This document shows positions 1,131-34,478 of a stretch of DNA of 64,000 nucleotides, piece by piece. Location: NCBI RefSeq assembly GCF_045037415.1, contig NZ_CP173438.1. One strand, 5' to 3'. The notes under the pieces are model-generated. The model ran no database searches and was not told the origin of the DNA. It saw nothing but the letters and a program-made list of their open reading frames with translations. A program made the position numbers and the translations under genes. Source of the stretch: Escherichia coli (GTDB lineage Bacteria; Pseudomonadota; Gammaproteobacteria; Enterobacterales; Enterobacteriaceae). Each line of letters begins with the position of its first letter. Position 1 is the first letter of the stretch.

Positions 1131-3392
1131 TTACCCCCGACGCAAATTCTGCGCCGCCTGCACCATGTTCGCCAGTGCCGCGCGGGTTTCTGGCCAGCCG
1201 CGCGTTTTCAGGCCACAGTCCGGGTTGACCCACAGACGCTCTGCCGGAATGCGTTTTGCCGCTTTCTTCAGCAAGGCTTCAATCCATTCCACGCTCGGTA
1301 CGTTTGGCGAGTGAATGTCATAGACGCCAGGACCGATTTCATTTGGATAATCAAACTCTTCAAACGACTCCAGCAACTCCATGTCGGAACGCGAGGTTTC
1401 GATGGTGATGACGTCTGCGTCCAACGCCGCAATCGAATCCATAATGTCGTTGAACTCGCAGTAACACATGTGAGTGTGGATTTGTGTGTCATCTTTCGCC
1501 ACGGCGGCGTTGATACGGAAAGCCTCCACGCCCCACTGGAGATAGGCATCCCAGTCGCTGCGACGCAGTGGTAAACCTTCGCGCAATGCCGGTTCGTCAA
1601 TCTGAATGATGCCAATTCCAGCGGCTTCCAGATCGGCCACTTCATCACGCAGTGCCAGCGCAATCTGTTTGGCGATGGTTTCACGGCTGACATCTTCACG
1701 CGGGAACGACCAGCAGAGAATAGTCACCGGGCCAGTCAACATCCCTTTCACCGGTTTATCAGTCAGGGATTGCGCATATTTTGCCCACTCCACGGTAATC
1801 GGTGCCGGGCGGCTAACGTCACCAATAACAATCGGTGGCTTCACGCAGCGGGAACCGTAGCTCTGTACCCAACCGTTTTGCGTAAAGACAAAGCCATCCA
1901 GATGCTCGCCAAAGTATTCCACCATGTCATTACGCTCGGCCTCGCCATGTACCAGCACATCCAGTCCCAAACGTTCCTGCTCAACAATGGCCTGCTTGAT
2001 ATGTTCCGCAATGCCCGTGCGGTAGTTATTGGCGTCGATATTACCCTTTTTAAAATCCAGACGCAGGGTACGAATCTCCGTGGTTTGCGGGAAGGAACCA
2101 ATCGTGGTGGTCGGCCACGCGGGCAGTTTAAAACGCGCACGCTGGGCTTCAGCACGCACTTCATAGACATTCGCACGCTGACTGTCCTGGGCGGTGATCG
2201 CCGCCAGACGCTTTTCTACTGCCGGATTATGTACACGAGTAGAGTGACGACGCGCCTGAATCGGAGCGCTCCACTCTGCCAGAGCTGCCGTATCACCACT
2301 GTTCAGCGCATCGCGCAGCAATGCCAGTTCATGACATTTTTGCAAGGCGAAGGCAAACCAGCTTTTCACTTCTGCATCAAGACGCGTTTCCACGCTCAGG
2401 TCGATGGGGCTGTGCAGCAGTGAGCAGGAAGATGCCACCCACAAATCACGTTTGCCGACAATGTCCTTAATTTGCGCATATTTCTCGGTAAGATCGGCGC
2501 GCCAGACGTTACGACCATTGATAAGACCCGCAGACAGCAGCCAGTCAGAAGGCAGGCGCTTGTGCAGTTCAGCAACGTCATCTTTACCATGTACAAGATC
2601 GACATGCAGACCCTGAACAGGCAGCGCAGTAATCGTGTCGAGGTTTGGCGTTACGCCTTCAAAATAGGTGGTCAGCAGCAGTTTCACCTGGCCCTGGAGC
2701 GCGTCGTAAGCGGGTTTGTATGCATCCAGCCACGCCTGCGGCAGTTCCAGCACTAGCGCGGGTTCGTCGATCTGTACCCACTCAATGCCGCGTTTCGCTA
2801 GTTCTGCCAGCACTTGCTGATAAACCGGCAGAATGTCGTTCAGCAGGCTCAGGCGATCAAACTGTTCACCTTTCACTTTACCCAGCCACAGGTAGGTAAC
2901 CGGCCCCAGCAGCACAGGTTTCACCTTGTGGCCCAGCGCCAGCGCCTCGTCCACTTCCTCCAGCAGCTGCGTCCAGGTCAGTTTGAACTGTTGGCCTTTA
3001 ACGAACTCCGGCACCATGTAGTGATAGTTGGTGTTAAACCATTTGGTCATTTCCGCTGCCGCCGCAGGTTCGCCAGTCGGTGCACGTCCACGACCAATAC
3101 GGAACAGGGTATCGATATCTACCGAACCATCGTTGTTCTGATGACGTTGCGGAACATTACCCAGCAGCAGACTGGTTGTCAGTACATGATCGTACCAGGC
3201 AAAATCGCCCACCGGCAGCAGGTCGATACCCGCTTGCTTTTGTTGATCCCAGTGACGAGCACGCAATTCACGCCCTACCGCCAGCAGTTCTTCACGCGTG
3301 GAGTTCCCCGCCCAATAACTCTCTTGCGCTTTTTTCAGCTCGCGACGCAGGCCAACGCGAGGGAAACCGAGGGTGTGATTAAGAATTGTCAT
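1131..3392 (-). CDS. metE: Cobalamin-independent methionine synthase
   Basis: 753-aa ORF; N-terminus [29 protein letters not shown] and overall length match E. coli MetE. Confidence 0.97.
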
Positions 3393-3509
3393 TATATGCC
3401 CCTTATGGAATTTTTAGTATTTAGCCGTCCAGATGTTTACACATCCATAATTGGCGGTTACTGTATATTCCTCAAGCGCAAATTATTCATGCCGAAGTGA
3501 AGGACTTTC
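3393..3509. promoter_or_regulatory. Divergent metE/metR control region with MetJ/MetR sites expected
   Basis: 117-bp divergent intergenic region; contains AGATGTTTACACATCC, which resembles tandem met-box-like octamers. Site positions not mapped. Confidence 0.4.
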
Positions 3510-4463
3510 ATGATCGAAGTAAAACACCTGAAAACGCTACAAGCGTTGCGGAACTGCGGCTCACTCGCAGCCGCTGCGGCGACGTTGCATCAAACGCAAT
3601 CCGCCCTGTCTCACCAGTTTAGCGATCTGGAACAACGCCTTGGCTTCCGGCTATTTGTGCGTAAAAGCCAGCCGCTTCGCTTTACACCGCAGGGAGAAAT
3701 CCTGTTGCAACTGGCAAATCAGGTGCTGCCGCAAATTAGCCAGGCACTGCAAGCCTGCAATGAACCGCAGCAGACGCGCCTGCGCATTGCCATAGAGTGC
3801 CATAGCTGTATTCAGTGGCTGACGCCCGCATTAGAAAATTTCCATAAGAACTGGCCGCAGGTGGAGATGGATTTTAAATCGGGCGTAACGTTTGATCCGC
3901 AGCCTGCGTTGCAACAGGGCGAGCTGGATCTGGTGATGACGTCCGATATTCTGCCGCGCAGTGGCCTGCATTATTCGCCGATGTTCGACTATGAAGTACG
4001 TCTGGTGTTAGCACCTGACCATCCACTGGCGGCAAAAACGCGTATTACACCGGAAGATCTCGCCAGCGAAACGCTGTTGATTTATCCGGTGCAGCGTAGC
4101 CGACTGGATGTCTGGCGGCATTTTCTTCAGCCAGCAGGCGTCAGCCCGTCACTGAAAAGCGTCGATAACACCTTATTGTTGATTCAGATGGTTGCCGCAC
4201 GGATGGGTATTGCCGCACTACCTCATTGGGTGGTGGAGAGTTTTGAACGCCAGGGTCTGGTGGTCACCAAAACCCTGGGCGAAGGCTTGTGGAGCCGACT
4301 GTACGCCGCCGTGCGCGATGGCGAGCAGCGTCAGCCGATTACAGAAGCGTTTATTCGTTCAGCGCGCAATCACGCCTGCGATCATCTGCCGTTTGTGAAG
4401 AGCGCGGAGCGACCCACTTACGATGCACCCACAGTGAGGCCAGGATCACCAGCGCGCCTGTAA
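3510..4463 (+). CDS. metR: LysR-family regulator of methionine biosynthesis
   Basis: 317-aa ORF; N-terminal HTH ([41 protein letters not shown]); divergent from metE. Confidence 0.95.
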
Positions 4464-5250
4464 TAAACGTTGGCCAGTGCGGCTGTTGGTGCCAGATAGC
4501 CAGGTTTACCAGCAGCCCTGCCGGAACGTGCATATTATTCATAATGCCCAGCGTTCCGGCGTCCACCTGCGTCGCGCCGTAGTTCCACATAAAGTAGCCA
4601 ATCCCGGAAGCCACCACGCCAAGAAACACCAGAATGCCCCATTGCAACGTGGTTTGCGGCATTTTCTGCGCATTTCCCAGCAAGAACCATGCAATCACTG
4701 CCACCAGGAACGCGCCAAGATAGAACCACGCAAAGGCGTTATGCTGCGGCATCGGGCGAGTTTCCATCAGACGTTTGTAACCCACCATGCCGATGGCAAA
4801 AGTGATATTGGAGAGTTGCACCAGCAACAAGCCAGTCCAGAAATGGTCGGTGACCTGATCATAGCGAATAATCCCGGCACCAATCACCGCCAACAAGGCG
4901 CTAAAAGCATAGCCCCAGCGCAGACGGCGCTTACTCATGATGTCATAAATCAGCGTGATGTAGAGCGGCGTCAGTACGGTGAACAACAGCAGTTCAGAAA
5001 CCGTCAGGTAGAGATAGGCGCGGAAACTCAGCATATACATCACACCGAGCTGCATCGCGCCCACCAGCATATACAGGCCGACCGTTTTCAGGCTATTGCC
5101 ACGGGTACGCAGAAACGGCAGAAAAACAAGTGCCGCCAGACCAACGCGCACCAGCACCGCAAAATAGCTATCGACGTGCCCCGCAAGGTACTCGCCATAA
5201 AAGCTAAAGGAGAAGGCCCACAGAATCGTGGTGATGATAAGTAGCGCCAC
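4351..5250 (-). CDS. yigM: EamA/DMT-family inner membrane transporter (biotin transporter YigM/BioP)
   Basis: 299-aa polytopic membrane ORF; position between metR and yigL as in E. coli; 3' end overlaps the metR 3' end by 113 bp. Confidence 0.85.
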
Positions 5251-5325: not shown

Positions 5326-6126
5326 TTACGATAAATAGAGCTTACGCAGATAATGCGGCACTGCGTCTTCGGCGTTAGTACCAATCACTTCCAGCTCTGG
5401 ATGCAGATCTTTCAGCCGTTGATGCGCGCTGCCCATAATGCAGCCTTTCCCCGCCATCGACAGCATTTCGGCATCGTTCATTCCATCGCCAAAGGCAATA
5501 CAATCTTGCAGGCTGTAACCCAGTTTCTTCGCTACCGCTTCCAGGGCATGGCCTTTTGAAACGCCGCCAGCCATGACTTCCAGGCAGGTTAAGGTAGAGA
5601 AACTGACATTGACGCGATCGCCCCAGCGAGCGTTAATCGCTTGCTCCAGTGGCAGAAGTTTTTCATGGGAATCGCAGGTGAAGAACACTTTGCTGACGCC
5701 TTCCGGCTCCAGCAATCCCGGCTCATACAGCGCATAATTGAACACCGCTTCTTTGAAAAAGCGCATCTCTTCCGGGCGATGGCGATTCATAAACCATTCG
5801 TCGTCGCGATAAACGTTAGTAATGATGTCCGGATTGTCGTTGACTACGCCAAACAGATCGCTGGCAATGTCGCGATCCAGGTTATGAGCAAAAATCAGGT
5901 TGCCATCCAGATCGTGAACGCGCGCGCCATTGGAGGTAATCATGTAAGACTTAATCTCCAGATTATCGCGAATTTGCCCCACATCAACGTGGTGACGACC
6001 GGTCGCAAACACAAAGTTGATGCCGCGCGCGGTGAGCAGCTTCAGAGTTTCTTTGGCGTAAGGGGATAACGTATGGTCGGGAGAAAGTAACGTGCCATCT
6101 AAATCAGACGCAACAACCTGGTACAT
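5326..6126 (-). CDS. yigL: Cof-type HAD sugar phosphatase
   Basis: ORF 5326..6252; conserved start taken at MYQVVASDLDGTLL (HAD motif I DxDGT), giving 266 aa. Confidence 0.9.
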   Translation of the reverse strand: MYQVVASDLDGTLLSPDHTLSPYAKETLKLLTARGINFVFATGRHHVDVGQIRDNLEIKSYMITSNGARVHDLDGNLIFAHNLDRDIASDLFGVVNDNPDIITNVYRDDEWFMNRHRPEEMRFFKEAVFNYALYEPGLLEPEGVSKVFFTCDSHEKLLPLEQAINARWGDRVNVSFSTLTCLEVMAGGVSKGHALEAVAKKLGYSLQDCIAFGDGMNDAEMLSMAGKGCIMGSAHQRLKDLHPELEVIGTNAEDAVPHYLRKLYLS

Positions 6127-29148: not shown

Positions 29149-30354
29149 ATGACGGAACAAGAAAAAACCTCCGCCGTGGTTGAAGAGACCAGGGAGGCCG
29201 TGGACACCACGTCACAACCTGTCGCAACAGAAAAAAAGAGTAAGAACAATACCGCATTGATTCTCAGCGCGGTGGCTATCGCTATTGCTCTGGCGGCGGG
29301 CGTCGGTTTGTATGGCTGGGGTAAACAACAGGCCGTCAATCAGACTGCCACCAGCGATGCCCTGGCTAACCAACTTACGGCACTGCAAAAAGCCCAGGAG
29401 AGCCAAAAAGCCGAGCTGGAAGGCATTATCAAGCAACAAGCTGTACAGCTTGAGCAGGCGAATCGTCAGCAAGAAACGCTGGCAAAACAGCTGGATGAAG
29501 TCCAACAAAAGGTCGCCACCATTTCCGGCAGCGATGCTAAAACCTGGCTGCTGGCCCAGGCCGATTTTCTGGTGAAACTCGCCGGACGGAAGCTGTGGAG
29601 CGATCAGGACGTCACGACCGCTGCAGCGTTGCTGAAAAGTGCAGACGCCAGCCTGGCGGATATGAATGACCCGAGTCTGATTACCGTTCGCCGGGCAATT
29701 ACCGATGATATCGCCAGCCTTTCTGCGGTATCGCAGGTGGATTATGACGGTATCATCCTTAAGCTTAATCAGCTTTCAAATCAGGTAGATAATCTGCGTC
29801 TGGCCGATAATGACAGCGATGGTTCGCCGATGGATTCCGACGGTGAAGAGCTTTCCAGTTCCATCAGCGAATGGCGTATCAATCTGCAAAAAAGCTGGCA
29901 GAATTTTATGGACAACTTCATTACGATTCGCCGTCGTGATGACACTGCCGTACCGCTGTTAGCGCCAAATCAGGATATCTATCTGCGCGAAAATATCCGC
30001 TCTCGCCTGCTGGTCGCAGCACAAGCTGTACCGCGTCACCAGGAAGAGACTTATCGCCAGGCGCTGGAGAACGTCTCCACCTGGGTACGTGCTTACTACG
30101 ATACTGATGATGCCACCACCAAAGCGTTCCTCGACGAGGTGGACCAGTTAAGCCAGCAAAATATCTCGATGGATCTTCCGGAAACCCTGCAAAGCCAGGC
30201 GATGCTGGAAAAATTGATGCAGACCCGCGTGCGTAACCTGCTGGCACAACCGGCAGCAGGGACAACGGAAGCTAAACCTGCACCTGCACCTGCACCTGCA
30301 CCTGCACCTGCACCGCAAGCTGATGCTCCGGCAGCCGCGCCGCAAGGAGAATAA
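29149..30354 (+). CDS. hemX: HemX (membrane protein of the hem operon)
   Basis: 401-aa ORF with one TM segment, coiled-coil Q/A-rich region and a C-terminal (PA)n repeat. Confidence 0.9.
30283..30312 (+). repeat. Hexanucleotide tandem repeat (CCTGCA)n, about 5 copies, encoding [12 protein letters not shown] in hemX
   Basis: Read directly: gcacctgcacctgcacctgcacctgcacctgcaccg. Confidence 0.9.
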
Positions 30355-30356
30355 CC

Positions 30357-31553
30357 ATGCTAAAAGTGTTATTGCTCTTTGTGTTGCTGATTGCGGGGAT
30401 CGTGGTTGGCCCGATGATTGCCGGCCATCAGGGTTACGTGCTGATCCAGACCGACAACTACAATATTGAAACTAGCGTCACGGGCCTCGCGATTATTTTG
30501 ATTCTGGCGATGGTAGTGCTGTTTGCCATTGAGTGGCTACTGCGGCGAATCTTCCGCACAGGCGCGCACACCCGTGGGTGGTTTGTCGGACGTAAGCGTC
30601 GCCGTGCACGTAAGCAGACCGAACAGGCGCTGCTGAAACTGGCGGAAGGCGATTATCAGCAAGTTGAAAAGCTGATGGCGAAAAATGCCGATCACGCTGA
30701 ACAACCGGTGGTGAACTATCTACTGGCAGCCGAAGCCGCGCAACAACGTGGTGATGAAGCACGCGCCAACCAACATCTGGAACGCGCAGCGGAGCTGGCC
30801 GGCAATGACACCATTCCGGTAGAAATCACCCGTGTACGTCTGCAACTGGCCCGTAATGAAAACCATGCAGCACGTCACGGCGTTGATAAGCTGCTGGAAG
30901 TTACGCCACGCCATCCGGAAGTATTACGTCTGGCGGAACAGGCGTATATCCGCACAGGGGCATGGAGTTCGCTGCTGGATATCATCCCATCAATGGCGAA
31001 AGCCCATGTTGGTGATGAAGAACATCGTGCAATGCTGGAACAACAGGCATGGATTGGCCTGATGGATCAGGCGCGTGCCGATAACGGTAGCGAAGGTTTG
31101 CGTAACTGGTGGAAAAACCAAAGCCGGAAAACGCGTCATCAGGTGGCCTTGCAGGTGGCAATGGCGGAACATCTTATTGAGTGTGACGATCATGATACTG
31201 CCCAGCAAATTATCATCGACGGCCTGAAACGCCAGTATGACGATCGCCTGCTGCTGCCGATCCCGCGTCTGAAAACCAATAATCCGGAACAGCTGGAAAA
31301 AGTGCTGCGCCAACAGATCAAAAACGTGGGCGATCGCCCGCTGTTGTGGAGCACACTGGGTCAGTCGCTGATGAAACACGGAGAATGGCAGGAAGCATCG
31401 CTCGCCTTCCGCGCAGCGCTGAAACAACGTCCGGACGCCTACGATTACGCATGGCTTGCCGACGCGCTGGACAGACTGCACAAGCCGGAAGAAGCCGCAG
31501 CGATGCGTCGCGACGGTTTGATGCTAACGTTGCAAAACAACCCACCGCAGTAA
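30357..31553 (+). CDS. hemY: HemY (TPR-containing membrane protein of the hem operon)
   Basis: 398-aa ORF with two N-terminal TM helices; starts 3 bp after hemX. Confidence 0.9.
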   Translation: MLKVLLLFVLLIAGIVVGPMIAGHQGYVLIQTDNYNIETSVTGLAIILILAMVVLFAIEWLLRRIFRTGAHTRGWFVGRKRRRARKQTEQALLKLAEGDYQQVEKLMAKNADHAEQPVVNYLLAAEAAQQRGDEARANQHLERAAELAGNDTIPVEITRVRLQLARNENHAARHGVDKLLEVTPRHPEVLRLAEQAYIRTGAWSSLLDIIPSMAKAHVGDEEHRAMLEQQAWIGLMDQARADNGSEGLRNWWKNQSRKTRHQVALQVAMAEHLIECDDHDTAQQIIIDGLKRQYDDRLLLPIPRLKTNNPEQLEKVLRQQIKNVGDRPLLWSTLGQSLMKHGEWQEASLAFRAALKQRPDAYDYAWLADALDRLHKPEEAAAMRRDGLMLTLQNNPPQ

Positions 31554-31556
31554 TCT

Positions 31557-31588
31557 ATATCGCCTCGTTCAGGGGCGATATTTTTTTA
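31557..31588 (+). terminator. Rho-independent terminator of the hemCDXY operon
   Basis: ATATCGCC-TCGTTCAGG-GGCGATAT hairpin followed by TTTTTTT. Confidence 0.7.
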
Positions 31589-31593
31589 CAAGG

Positions 31594-32193
31594 ATGTCAA
31601 ACATGCGCACACCGTCCCGCTATATTTTCCGCTTACCATCACATGAAATTAATCCTTTTCGGGCAACGCTCTTGCTGATTTTGTTGATATGTGCCGTTCT
31701 GGCTGGCGTAAGTTGGCTGATTCTGTCCTTCGTACGTACAGGCAATACATTCATCTTCTGGTTAACACTTTTTATTGGGTATCTGATAGCCATTGCGAAG
31801 CAGGAAAAAATCAAGCTCATCGAGAAGCGCCAGATTATGGCTGATAAACGTCAGGGACTTTCCATTTGTCAGTTCGCACGCCAATTTTCCCCCCACACCG
31901 TAGATACATGGGTGATTCGGGCTGTGTGGAATACCTTACAAGGAAACGGCTATATCGATTATCCATTACCACTGAAAGCCAGTGATAAACTGGACGATGA
32001 TCTGGATTTAGTAAACGATGCAGACGAGTTAGAAGAGCTGGTCGAAGATATTGCCGCTCGTTGTGGGCGCGATCTACGCGGAATAGAAGATAATCCGTTT
32101 CTTCCCATCACCACGGTAGGTTCTCTTGTAAGTGTATTAAACGCACAACCGATGACCCAAGAGCGACGTAGCCTGTTGTTTACTCGGTCATAA
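31594..32193 (+). CDS. Hypothetical two-TM membrane protein with acidic C-terminal domain
   Basis: 199-aa ORF in a 640-bp region between hemY and the GlmZ 3' end; AAGGA 9 nt upstream of the second ATG (31603); two hydrophobic helices then DDDLDLVNDADELEELVED. No family recognised. Confidence 0.45.
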   Translation: MSNMRTPSRYIFRLPSHEINPFRATLLLILLICAVLAGVSWLILSFVRTGNTFIFWLTLFIGYLIAIAKQEKIKLIEKRQIMADKRQGLSICQFARQFSPHTVDTWVIRAVWNTLQGNGYIDYPLPLKASDKLDDDLDLVNDADELEELVEDIAARCGRDLRGIEDNPFLPITTVGSLVSVLNAQPMTQERRSLLFTRS

Positions 32194-32398
32194 AAAAACG
32201 CCTGCTCTTATTACGGAGCAGGCGTTAAAACAGGTCTGTATGACAACAAGTGGGTGCTTCACTCAACGTTGTGTCCATGGTGTCTGATGAGGCAGAAGCG
32301 ACATCTGTCAGTGGACGATAAGCACCGTAAACGGCTCTGCGTCATTCCGGAGTTTATGAGGCACTAAGGCGAACATAAGAGATGGAATGAGCATCTAC
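32193..32398 (-). ncRNA. glmZ: GlmZ small regulatory RNA (activator of glmS translation)
   Basis: Minus-strand sequence from 32398 reads GTAGATGCTCATTCCATCTCTTATGTTCGCCTTAGTGCCTCATAAACTCCGGAATGAC and ends with hairpin AACGCCTGCTC-CGTAATAAGA-GCAGGCGTT plus TTTTTTT; matches my memory of E. coli GlmZ, located between hemY and aslA. Confidence 0.85.
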
Positions 32399-32822
32399 TC
32401 GTTTATTATGCCACAGAGAACCGGGAAATAACATCCCTTAACACTTGTTATGAGATAATTCTGTAATCCTCTTTGCTTCCTGAGTAATAACTTCCTGAGT
32501 GAATATTTCTCCTGCGCACAATTCTACACATATATATAATGAATAATAAAAGTCATTCAATTAATAACATATATATTAATTGCAGATAAAACTAAAAACA
32601 GCATCAATAATCAACGCGATATAACATCACCGCCTTACATATCACCTGCGCCAGAGGTAGGATTGAAAACGCTCTCCTGATTTTCCAATTCATTTTCTGG
32701 ATAAATAAATAATTTATTTTTATCACCATTATTTATGCAATCATCCTGTCAGGGAGAGGGATCTCAATTATCAATGCTTAATTACGTCATCATTTTGACG
32801 ACATGAAACCGGAGCATTTTGC

Positions 32823-34478
32823 ATGGAATTTTCGTTTTCACCCAAACTTCTTGTTGTTGCTGTCGCCGCAGCTCTTCCTCTCATAGCCAGCGCAGCAGAT
32901 ACCCCGTCAACCGCCACCGCACGCAAAGGCTTTGCCGGATACGATCACCCAAACCAGTATCTGGTTAAACCGGCGACCACTATTGCCGACAACATGATGC
33001 CGGTGATGCAGCATCCTGCACAAGACAAAGAAACCCAGCAGAAACTGGCGGAACTTGAGAAAAAAACCGGTAAGAAACCGAACGTGGTTGTTTTCTTGCT
33101 GGATGATGTGGGCTGGATGGACGTTGGCTTTAACGGCGGCGGCGTGGCGGTGGGTAACCCTACACCAGATATCGACGCCGTTGCCAGCCAGGGGCTGATT
33201 TTAACTTCGGCGTATTCTCAACCGAGTTCTTCCCCAACCCGCGCCACGATTCTCACCGGACAATACTCCATCCACCACGGCATTCTGATGCCGCCAATGT
33301 ACGGGCAACCGGGCGGTCTGCAAGGGTTAACCACGCTGCCACAGTTGCTGCACGATCAGGGCTACGTCACCCAGGCTATCGGGAAATGGCATATGGGGGA
33401 AAACAAAGAGTCGCAGCCGCAGAACGTTGGCTTTGATGATTTCCGCGGCTTTAACTCGGTATCTGATATGTATACCGAATGGCGTGATGTTCATGTCAAC
33501 CCGGAAGTCGCCCTGAGCCCGGATCGTTCTGAATACATCCAAAAACTGCCGTTTAGCAAAGATGACGTTCATGCCGTGCGCGGCGGTGAACAGGAAGCCA
33601 TTGCCGACATTACGCCGAAATATATGGAAGATCTGGATCAACGCTGGATGGAATATGGCGTTAAGTTCCTCGACAAGATGGCGAAGAGTGATAAGCCTTT
33701 CTTCCTCTATTACGGCACTCGCGGCTGTCACTTCGATAACTACCCGAACGCCAAATATGCGGGTAGCTCTCCGGCGCGCACCTCTTACGGCGACTGCATG
33801 GTGGAGATGAACGATATCTTCGCCAATCTGTATAAAGCACTGGAGAAAAACGGTCAGCTTGATAACACGCTGATTGTGTTCACCTCTGATAACGGTCCGG
33901 AAGCCGAAGTTCCGCCGCACGGTCGCACGCCGTTCCGCGGTGCGAAAGGTTCTACATGGGAAGGCGGCGTTCGTGTGCCAACCTTCGTTTACTGGAAAGG
34001 CATGATCCAACCGCGTAAATCTGACGGCATTGTCGATCTGGCGGATCTCTTCCCTACGGCGCTGGATCTGGCGGGGCATCCTGGGGCGAAAGTAGCGAAT
34101 TTAGTACCGAAAACCACCTTTATCGATGGTGTGGACCAGACATCTTTCTTCCTGGGAACAAATGGTCAGTCTAACCGTAAGGCCGAGCATTACTTCCTCA
34201 ACGGTAAACTTTCTGCTGTGCGTATGGATGAGTTCAAGTATCACGTCCTGATTCAGCAACCTTACGCTTATACCCAGAGCGGATATCAGGGTGGATTCAC
34301 CGGCACAGTAATGCAAACGGCGGGATCGTCGGTGTTTAACCTGTACACCGATCCGCAGGAAAGCGACTCTATCGGCGTGCGCCATATCCCAATGGGTGTA
34401 CCGCTACAGACCGAAATGCATGCGTATATGGAGATCCTGAAAAAATATCCACCACGCGCGCAGATTAAATCTGATTAA
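32823..34478 (+). CDS. aslA: Arylsulfatase-family protein
   Basis: 551-aa ORF with signal peptide and sulfatase signature region ([20 protein letters not shown]). Confidence 0.9.

Follow-up and report, generated by a model that had tools for sequence, protein, structure and literature searches.

The interval between hemY and the gene of the small RNA GlmZ in ST131-type Escherichia coli holds what, judged by conservation and selection, is a genuine accessory protein-coding gene and not noise; K-12 is the form without the gene. We propose that the product is a membrane-tethered, acyl carrier protein (ACP)-like binding module that is not itself a carrier, expressed by read-through from hemCDXY and without a link to GlmZ. 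We give this account as a whole about an even chance. From its cytoplasmic N-terminus, which begins MRTPSR, the protein would run through a two-helix membrane hairpin and a basic juxtamembrane helix to an acidic, ACP-like domain in the cytoplasm. What is new is the architecture, a predicted serine-less ACP fold on a membrane hairpin, and not the locus. The gene was examined within a 64,000-nucleotide stretch of E. coli DNA, which is called the window here.

Organization of the hemY-glmZ locus

The features of the locus are listed in Table 1. As the original prediction had it, a clean, intact open reading frame (ORF) was present between hemY and GlmZ, and both the terminator-like hairpin behind hemY and GlmZ itself were located. 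GlmZ matched the Rfam model at 217.5 bits (gathering score, 60) over its full length, model positions 1-214. The A-run at 32192-32198 is complementary to the U7 tail of GlmZ and shares 2 nt with the TAA codon of the ORF (32191-32193), so that the stop codon lies inside sequence common to the GlmZ 3' end. The TAA had thus been placed at the right position, but the two elements overlap by 2 nt instead of merely abutting.

Table 1. Features of the hemY-glmZ region and their positions in the window.
Feature	Position	Strand	Basis or status
hemX	29149-30354	+	
hemY	30357-31553	+	
Hairpin ATATCGCC-loop-GGCGATAT followed by T7, directly 3' of the hemY stop	31557-31588	+	Terminator scan, fold
Shine-Dalgarno-like AAGGA, 8 nt 5' of ATG 31603	31590-31594	+	Direct reading
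ORF as first read, 199 aa	31594-32193	+	Intact
CDS, 196 aa, stop included; RefSeq WP_001260226.1, 'hypothetical protein'	31603-32193	+	
N-terminal motif MRTPSR	31603-31620	+	Alignments
Transmembrane hairpin: TM1, RTGN turn, TM2	31663-31800	+	Kyte-Doolittle, AF2
Acidic ACP-fold domain, residues ~87-185, predicted cytoplasmic	31861-32157	+	Predicted
GlmZ sRNA gene, convergent with the ORF	32192-32398	-	Rfam RF00083
GlmZ terminator hairpin	32197-32226	-	Terminator scan and fold

Two in-frame ATG codons, at 31594 and 31603, lie 9 nt apart. The second (196 aa) is the likelier start than the first (199 aa), because AAGGA precedes it by 8 nt, the RefSeq/PGAP gene model begins there, and its product has the family N-terminus MRTPSR. 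This N-terminus was nearly invariant in the family alignments (A2 and A3), with relatives from many phyla, and M[RKH]xPSR was the exact start in 61 of 148 family representatives. The 58%-identical ortholog on metagenomic contig L011 has GTG at the position of the second ATG, and no in-frame upstream ATG was found in the bases checked. The divergent E. coli allele has TTG at the downstream codon and retains the upstream ATG, and the 199-aa form is kept in UniProt entry A0A192CFN8; a 199-aa alternative product from ATG 31594 is also conceivable.

Coding status and selection

Nei-Gojobori dN/dS was 0.22-0.27 among three Escherichia alleles and 0.12-0.17 against the Pseudocitrobacter-like ortholog, compared with 0.00-0.03 for hemY. 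These values indicate purifying selection on the ORF that is clearly more relaxed than on the housekeeping gene hemY. The ORF is considered more than a chance frame because of its dN/dS of 0.12-0.27 and its 990 homologous cluster representatives.

A decaying relic without current function would be compatible with the lack of the gene in 87% of complete E. coli genomes, with the terminator-like hairpin directly upstream, and with shortened forms of 118-166 aa found in E. albertii and Escherichia sp. E2586 (118 aa) and in some E. coli. However, dN/dS is well under 1, the reading frame is intact in both E. coli alleles, in Escherichia sp. E1V33 and in the 58%-identical ortholog, and the family is large and conserved. 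We therefore consider a relic improbable.

Distribution among E. coli genomes and comparison with K-12

The locus was compared by megablast with 5426 complete E. coli genomes, and a genome was counted as a carrier when a match covered at least 80% of the 636-bp query. The ORF was present in 693 genomes (approximately 13%), whereas hemY and GlmZ were found in 5424. Two genomes gave no match to the hemY-glmZ query and one of the 693 ORF-bearing records was classed as a plasmid; assembly or labelling quirks may account for these records. At least 99% identity to the window was seen in 588 carriers, including a record named O25b:H4-ST131. The remaining 105 carry a second allele with approximately 87.7% nucleotide identity (about 12% apart) and 83% protein identity. 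Among the carriers listed, every CDS annotation read 'hypothetical protein'. The gene was absent from K-12-like, B, HB101, O157 and E2348/69 genomes.

The hemY-glmZ distance, which the original prediction had proposed to measure in reference genomes, differed: the hemY stop codon lies 635 bp from the common CATAAAAAAACGCC in the window and 44 bp from it in K-12-type genomes. In K-12, hemX, hemY, GlmZ, aslA and aslB have the same order and orientation, and neither the GlmZ terminator nor the CATAAAAAAAC junction differs from that of the window, but the gene-bearing 635 bp is replaced by 44 bp with a different hairpin. This K-12-type segment is TTCCTTCTCACCCGGAGGCAAGCACCTCCGGGGCCTTCCTGATA, with its own CCCGGAGG/CCTCCGGG hairpin. 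No homology was detectable between the 635 bp and the 44 bp, local alignment giving the common CATAAAAAAACGCCTG only, and a remnant of the ORF in the K-12 filler was ruled out on the same finding of just CATAAAAAAACGCCTG. The difference is best described as a replacement polymorphism and not a clean insertion or deletion, because 635 bp stands against an unrelated 44 bp.

The suggestion of a strain-specific insertion was consequently correct as to the absence from K-12 and the presence in 693 of 5426 genomes, but not as to simple insertion. Likewise, the gene does belong to a widely conserved family without a name, as the alternative suggestion of an overlooked conserved gene implied, but it had not been overlooked, because RefSeq annotates it as WP_001260226.1.

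The hemCDXY-ORF-GlmZ order was also found in Escherichia sp. E1V33 (L014, 85% identity), and E. fergusonii has an 83%-identical protein. The post-hemY hairpin, which belongs to the 635-bp segment and is lacking in K-12, is kept in the divergent allele (L003) and in E1V33. The dS between the two E. coli alleles was 0.33, against 0.18 for the adjacent hemY, and the GC content of the ORF was 45.9%, against 54-55% in the flanking genes. The gene may date back to the ancestor of Escherichia instead of being a recent insertion, and the pattern fits an old Escherichia-level gene that was lost from most E. coli; recombinational gain via the conserved hemY and glmZ flanks is an alternative origin that could also apply. 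The gene would be dispensable for E. coli as a species.

The locus offers a clean, natural presence/absence polymorphism that is usable for genetics. The gene is near-clonal in strains whose sequence here equals that of O25b:H4-ST131 records, which makes it a candidate lineage marker. The sequence of one ST131 PCR primer did not occur within the window; no conclusion was drawn from this.

Relatives beyond E. coli and their genomic context

The hemY-ORF-GlmZ order extends to metagenomic contig L011, where the ortholog has 58% protein identity and its stop codon lies 6 nt from GlmZ, 8 nt earlier than in the window. HemC of this contig clusters with Pseudocitrobacter. A tRNA gene was observed within approximately 180 bp after GlmZ in the Pseudocitrobacter-like contigs (L013, 1305-1378; L011, ~5560-5593), and because it follows GlmZ so closely, aslA and aslB appear to be absent from this locus, unlike in Escherichia.

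Homologs with 35-43% identity were found in Kosakonia, Phytobacter, Superficieibacter and the Enterobacteriaceae MAG UBA5654 (L015-L019, ~2400-4600). In these genomes the gene follows potHI-ybjO-rlmC, lies 28-40 nt behind the co-directional rlmC and converges on art genes (rlmC-artJ); no GlmZ was found near any of these rlmC-artJ homologs. The site is of the same type as the one in the window, in that a convergent gene faces the 3' end of a co-directional one.

A word-index search gave 53 homologs. When a profile was searched against 1.84 billion cluster representatives, 990 relatives were found at E<=0.001; 740 passed E<=1e-10 and 256 passed E<=1e-30. With one genome per species, the relatives came from Enterobacteriaceae, Pseudomonas, Motilimonas, many Burkholderiales, Competibacter and Alphaproteobacteria, and further from Planctomycetota, Verrucomicrobia, Armatimonadetes and Sulfurovum. 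Of the source names listed, one read 'acyl carrier protein' and the others 'hypothetical protein', and no precomputed Pfam domain was present among the listed relatives. One metagenomic protein of 354 aa (P0068) contains the whole architecture in tandem, with the membrane segments and the ACP-like domain twice in one polypeptide.

The relatives typically lie close behind a co-directional gene and converge on the next gene. Across 36 loci, in which ORFs were clustered by BLAST, no conserved neighbour or operon partner was found save among close relatives. A mobile-element origin found no support, as there was no phage match and a single weak plasmid match, to an 801-kb Pseudoalteromonas replicon.

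The main rival to the binding-module reading is an orphan protective or immunity-type protein that neutralises a T6SS, CDI or bacteriocin effector at the inner membrane face. Such a role would suit a small, acidic protein with a patchy, lineage-specific distribution, two alleles about 12% apart, low GC (45.9% against 54-55% in the flanks) and faster evolution than its neighbours (dN/dS 0.22-0.27 against 0.01 for hemY). A few relatives lie in variable islands that hold immunity-type or toxin-antitoxin genes: an array of small ORFs at a contig end that starts with Imm27, an island with SUFU, DUF4279, transposases, CcdB and ParE, and one with DarT/NADAR and BrnA. These Imm27 and SUFU islands, however, hold a minority of the relatives, most contexts being ordinary housekeeping neighbourhoods, and no toxin gene was adjacent in the window or in the approximately 40 loci examined. 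The neighbours in the window are hemY and GlmZ/aslA, with neither a cognate toxin nor an immunity array. PADLOC gave just a weak match confined to the membrane segment, there were no phage copies and essentially no plasmid copies, and approximately 25 residues hardly vary from phylum to phylum, a constancy that immunity proteins do not usually show. Taken together, we hold an immunity-type role to be unlikely, though a real contender.

Protein architecture

The original prediction of two N-terminal transmembrane helices followed by a highly acidic soluble domain was supported. Residues 1-20 are basic (4 K/R), and the strongly hydrophobic stretch that follows (residues 21-66, GRAVY 1.91) contains a short RTGN turn. 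Kyte-Doolittle peaks at approximately residues 24-38 and 55-56 (196-aa numbering) and the helices 18-46 and 49-82 of the AF2 model support a membrane hairpin, with TM1 predicted at about residues 21-44 and TM2 at about 49-66. Residues 67-86 are again basic (6 K/R), whereas residues 87-196 have a pI of 4.4, with 18 D+E against 10 K+R. Because of this charge distribution and the positive-inside rule, both termini would be cytoplasmic (N-in/C-in).

In the full-length AF2 model (pLDDT 82) the two helices are followed by a compact helical domain, and a model of the domain only reached a pLDDT of 90.8 and a pTM of 0.85. Near-invariant residues of the family are R83, I88, C89, F91, R93, D101, W103, R106, A107, P123, D128, L134, R153, G155, R156, N164, P165, V176, Q182 and P183. 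Cys89 was present in 136 of 149 members. It forms part of a Cys/Phe/Arg motif, SICxFAR, in an N-terminal extension of a kind that ACPs do not have.

Likeness to acyl carrier proteins and its limits

The soluble domain of approximately 110 aa is predicted to adopt the four-helix fold of acyl/peptidyl carrier proteins, and the model agrees with that fold. Sequence searches gave faint signals in the same direction. A profile search of the PDB matched ACPs weakly, at E 0.5-4.5, in a coherent register. The NCBIfam ACP model PRK05350 matched only the family consensus, at E 0.002, with 18.1 bits against a cut-off of 65. Labels such as 'Acyl carrier protein' or 'Carrier domain-containing protein' stand on several AFDB homologs. 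On the other side, Foldseek against the PDB returned nothing significant (best E 0.17), and alignment with a single AcpP sequence by hhalign gave a coherent register but a probability of just 4.6%.

In the HMMER and hhalign registers, D35-S36-L37-D38 of AcpP aligns with D139-A140-D141-E142. The ACP-serine column is Ala140 in the E. coli protein, and among 149 relatives it contained D in 39, P in 37, E in 19, G in 13 and S in 13; the conserved serine of the DSL motif at the N-terminus of helix II is thus not a feature of the family. There was no Pfam PP-binding match for the E. coli protein or among the 149 members, and no curated carrier HMM of Pfam or NCBIfam matched above threshold. No PPTase, synthase, ligase or acyltransferase partner was a conserved neighbour, either by BLAST clustering of the 36 loci or in Pfam-annotated contexts.

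The protein might nevertheless be a genuine carrier of acyl or peptidyl groups, specialised and membrane-bound, that is modified at a non-canonical residue such as Cys89 or, in some members, at Ser. The ACP-like predicted fold and several UniProt ACP labels would agree with this, as would the presence of Cys89 in 136 members and of Ser at the canonical position in 13 of the 149. However, the canonical Ser is lacking from the E. coli protein, as it is from 136 of 149 relatives; Cys89 is in the N-terminal extension and not at the helix II N-cap; Pfam gave no PP-binding match and the 18 bits from the NCBIfam ACP model fall short of its cut-off of 65; and PPTase, synthase and ligase neighbours are not conserved. 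A true carrier is therefore very unlikely in our judgement.

Members of the ACP/PCP superfamily (PF00550; AcpP, M. tuberculosis Rv0033, PDB 2cgq) have the serine where the E. coli protein has Ala140, and the E. coli family differs from them further in the SICxFAR extension, the transmembrane hairpin and the MRxPSR N-terminus. The sole Pfam family with any signal to the family was DUF1493 (PF07377), an enterobacterial family of approximately 110 aa that belongs to the ACP-like clan. The consensus matched it at E 0.035, with residues 23-91 on positions 3-70 of the 108-position model. Among the 149 members, one matched at 2.5e-4 and six at <=0.1, and the E. coli protein itself gave no match. Going by its model length of 108, DUF1493 is without a membrane hairpin, and the relation is distant at best. 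Some large complexes contain ACP-type subunits with a structural, non-enzymatic role, among them NDUFAB1/SDAP in mitochondrial complex I and those in ciliate ATP synthase and complex IV; with these the E. coli protein would have the fold alone in common, with no sequence relationship. Unlike it, the organellar subunits are eukaryotic, are not themselves membrane-anchored and mostly keep the acyl-pantetheine serine.

Several other matches were rejected. AaeB, SpoIIGA, DUF2178 and PDC-M48A (Pfam, NCBIfam, PADLOC and PHROGs) matched weakly and in the membrane segment only, and were set aside as hydrophobic-segment noise. The CptA/YgfX toxin family (PF07254) matched one of 149 members at 5.2e-4 and the E. 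coli protein not at all; its signal is tentatively taken as hydrophobic-segment similarity. Our literature search on the RefSeq accession, DUF1493, ACP-like immunity proteins and serine-less membrane ACPs gave nothing relevant.

In the binding-module reading, the ACP-like domain would not shuttle acyl groups. It would act as a membrane-tethered ACP look-alike that docks a conserved partner via its acidic helix II and the invariant Arg/Asp/Cys/Trp set. The term 'adaptor' is a placeholder for the mechanism that we infer from the model, and the approximately 25 near-invariant residues, including a cysteine, could point to catalysis or ligand binding rather than simple docking. More tentatively, and with some doubt, the combination of M[RK]xPSR, a transmembrane hairpin and a serine-less ACP fold with its invariant Cys/Arg/Asp/Trp set may define an undescribed, widespread family in which the fold has a new use at the cytoplasmic face of the inner membrane. 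If true, the family might regulate an ACP-dependent membrane enzyme or serve as its decoy, or might be a new protective class, and in E. coli it would mark the pandemic ST131 lineage. The prediction gives a first structural handle on a family of about a thousand clusters without a match above any Pfam or NCBIfam threshold, and its practical value is a testable fold hypothesis.

Expression and relation to GlmZ

The post-hemY hairpin consists of a 10-pair stem and a T tail, with a folding energy of -20.7 kcal/mol and a z of -5.0 (terminator scan and fold). One base separates its T-run from AAGGA, which leaves no room for a dedicated promoter 3' of the hairpin, and no sigma-70-like site was found on the + strand in 31000-32900. 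Because of this one-base spacing before the Shine-Dalgarno sequence and the lack of a promoter-like site on the + strand, expression probably depends on read-through from hemCDXY. Presumably without a promoter of its own, the gene would be expressed from the hemCDXY transcript by read-through of the post-hemY hairpin; this strong-looking upstream terminator would limit expression, barring an unrecognised promoter. The enterobacterial paralogous sites, with the gene 28-40 nt behind the co-directional rlmC, fit the same read-through geometry.

Translation would end inside the A-run of the GlmZ terminator. On either strand the 12-bp GlmZ hairpin folds strongly (-25 and -24 kcal/mol). On the minus strand it is followed by U7, whereas on the + strand it is followed by GUUAAAAC (also given as GUUAAAACAGG), with only two U. 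Because only two U follow, the + strand lacks the usual U-tract, and an A-tract plus U-tract on each strand, as in a bidirectional intrinsic terminator, was not found. The terminator scan reported the hairpin on the minus strand only. The original prediction that one hairpin would end both transcripts is therefore plausible in its geometry, but the two U of the + strand and the minus-only scan result argue against it, and the common hairpin would be a weak terminator on the + strand. A literature search on glmZ and bidirectional terminators gave nothing relevant.

The GlmZ hairpin, the U7 and the following AUG are identical in K-12, so the ORF stop codon uses a pre-existing junction. In K-12, hemY converges on the same hairpin from 44 bp away, and the arrangement is therefore not special to the ORF. 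These observations bear on whether the ORF acts mainly in cis, convergent transcription or translation modulating GlmZ 3'-end formation or abundance in carriers. The 2-nt overlap of the TAA with the complement of the GlmZ U-tail would allow for such an effect, and the juxtaposition of ORF and GlmZ is kept in E1V33 and, with a 6-nt gap, in the Pseudocitrobacter-like contig. Against it, besides the identity of the GlmZ 3' end with K-12 and the convergence of K-12-type hemY from just 44 bp, relatives in other genera occupy unrelated sites (rlmC-artJ) with no GlmZ nearby, and protein-level conservation accounts for the maintenance of the ORF. A cis role strikes us as very improbable. In the account that we prefer, the GlmZ terminator would represent geometry common with K-12 and not a functional link, and the gene does not currently bear on GlmZ biology.

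GlmZ is an activator of glmS. The Pseudomonas solani homolog (L004, 8001-11518) lies one LysR gene from glmS-glmR(DeoR)-glmU. A link to GlcN6P/GlmS was rejected, as other Pseudomonas loci have DUF1329/DUF1302 in that place and the enterobacterial paralogous sites are without GlmZ, and the proximity to glmS in P. solani is probably a coincidence.

Other sequence differences in the region

Within GlmZ, a single-base difference was observed at window position 32295 (minus strand), with GGCAGAAGC here and GGCATAAGC in the K-12-like genome and in strain CUVET20-416. This position falls in the apical loop region of the Rfam alignment, and the aligned rest of GlmZ was identical. Between the promoter side of GlmZ and aslA (window 32440-32620), the sequence was very AT-rich, with ATATATATAA-type runs. 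The 3' end of hemX (window 30250-30354) encodes an Ala-Pro repeat. Annotation gives hemX 1200 bp in one ST131-type genome, against 1182 bp for a K-12-like one and 1218 bp for strain CUVET20-416, and this difference among strains suggests that the repeat is length-variable.
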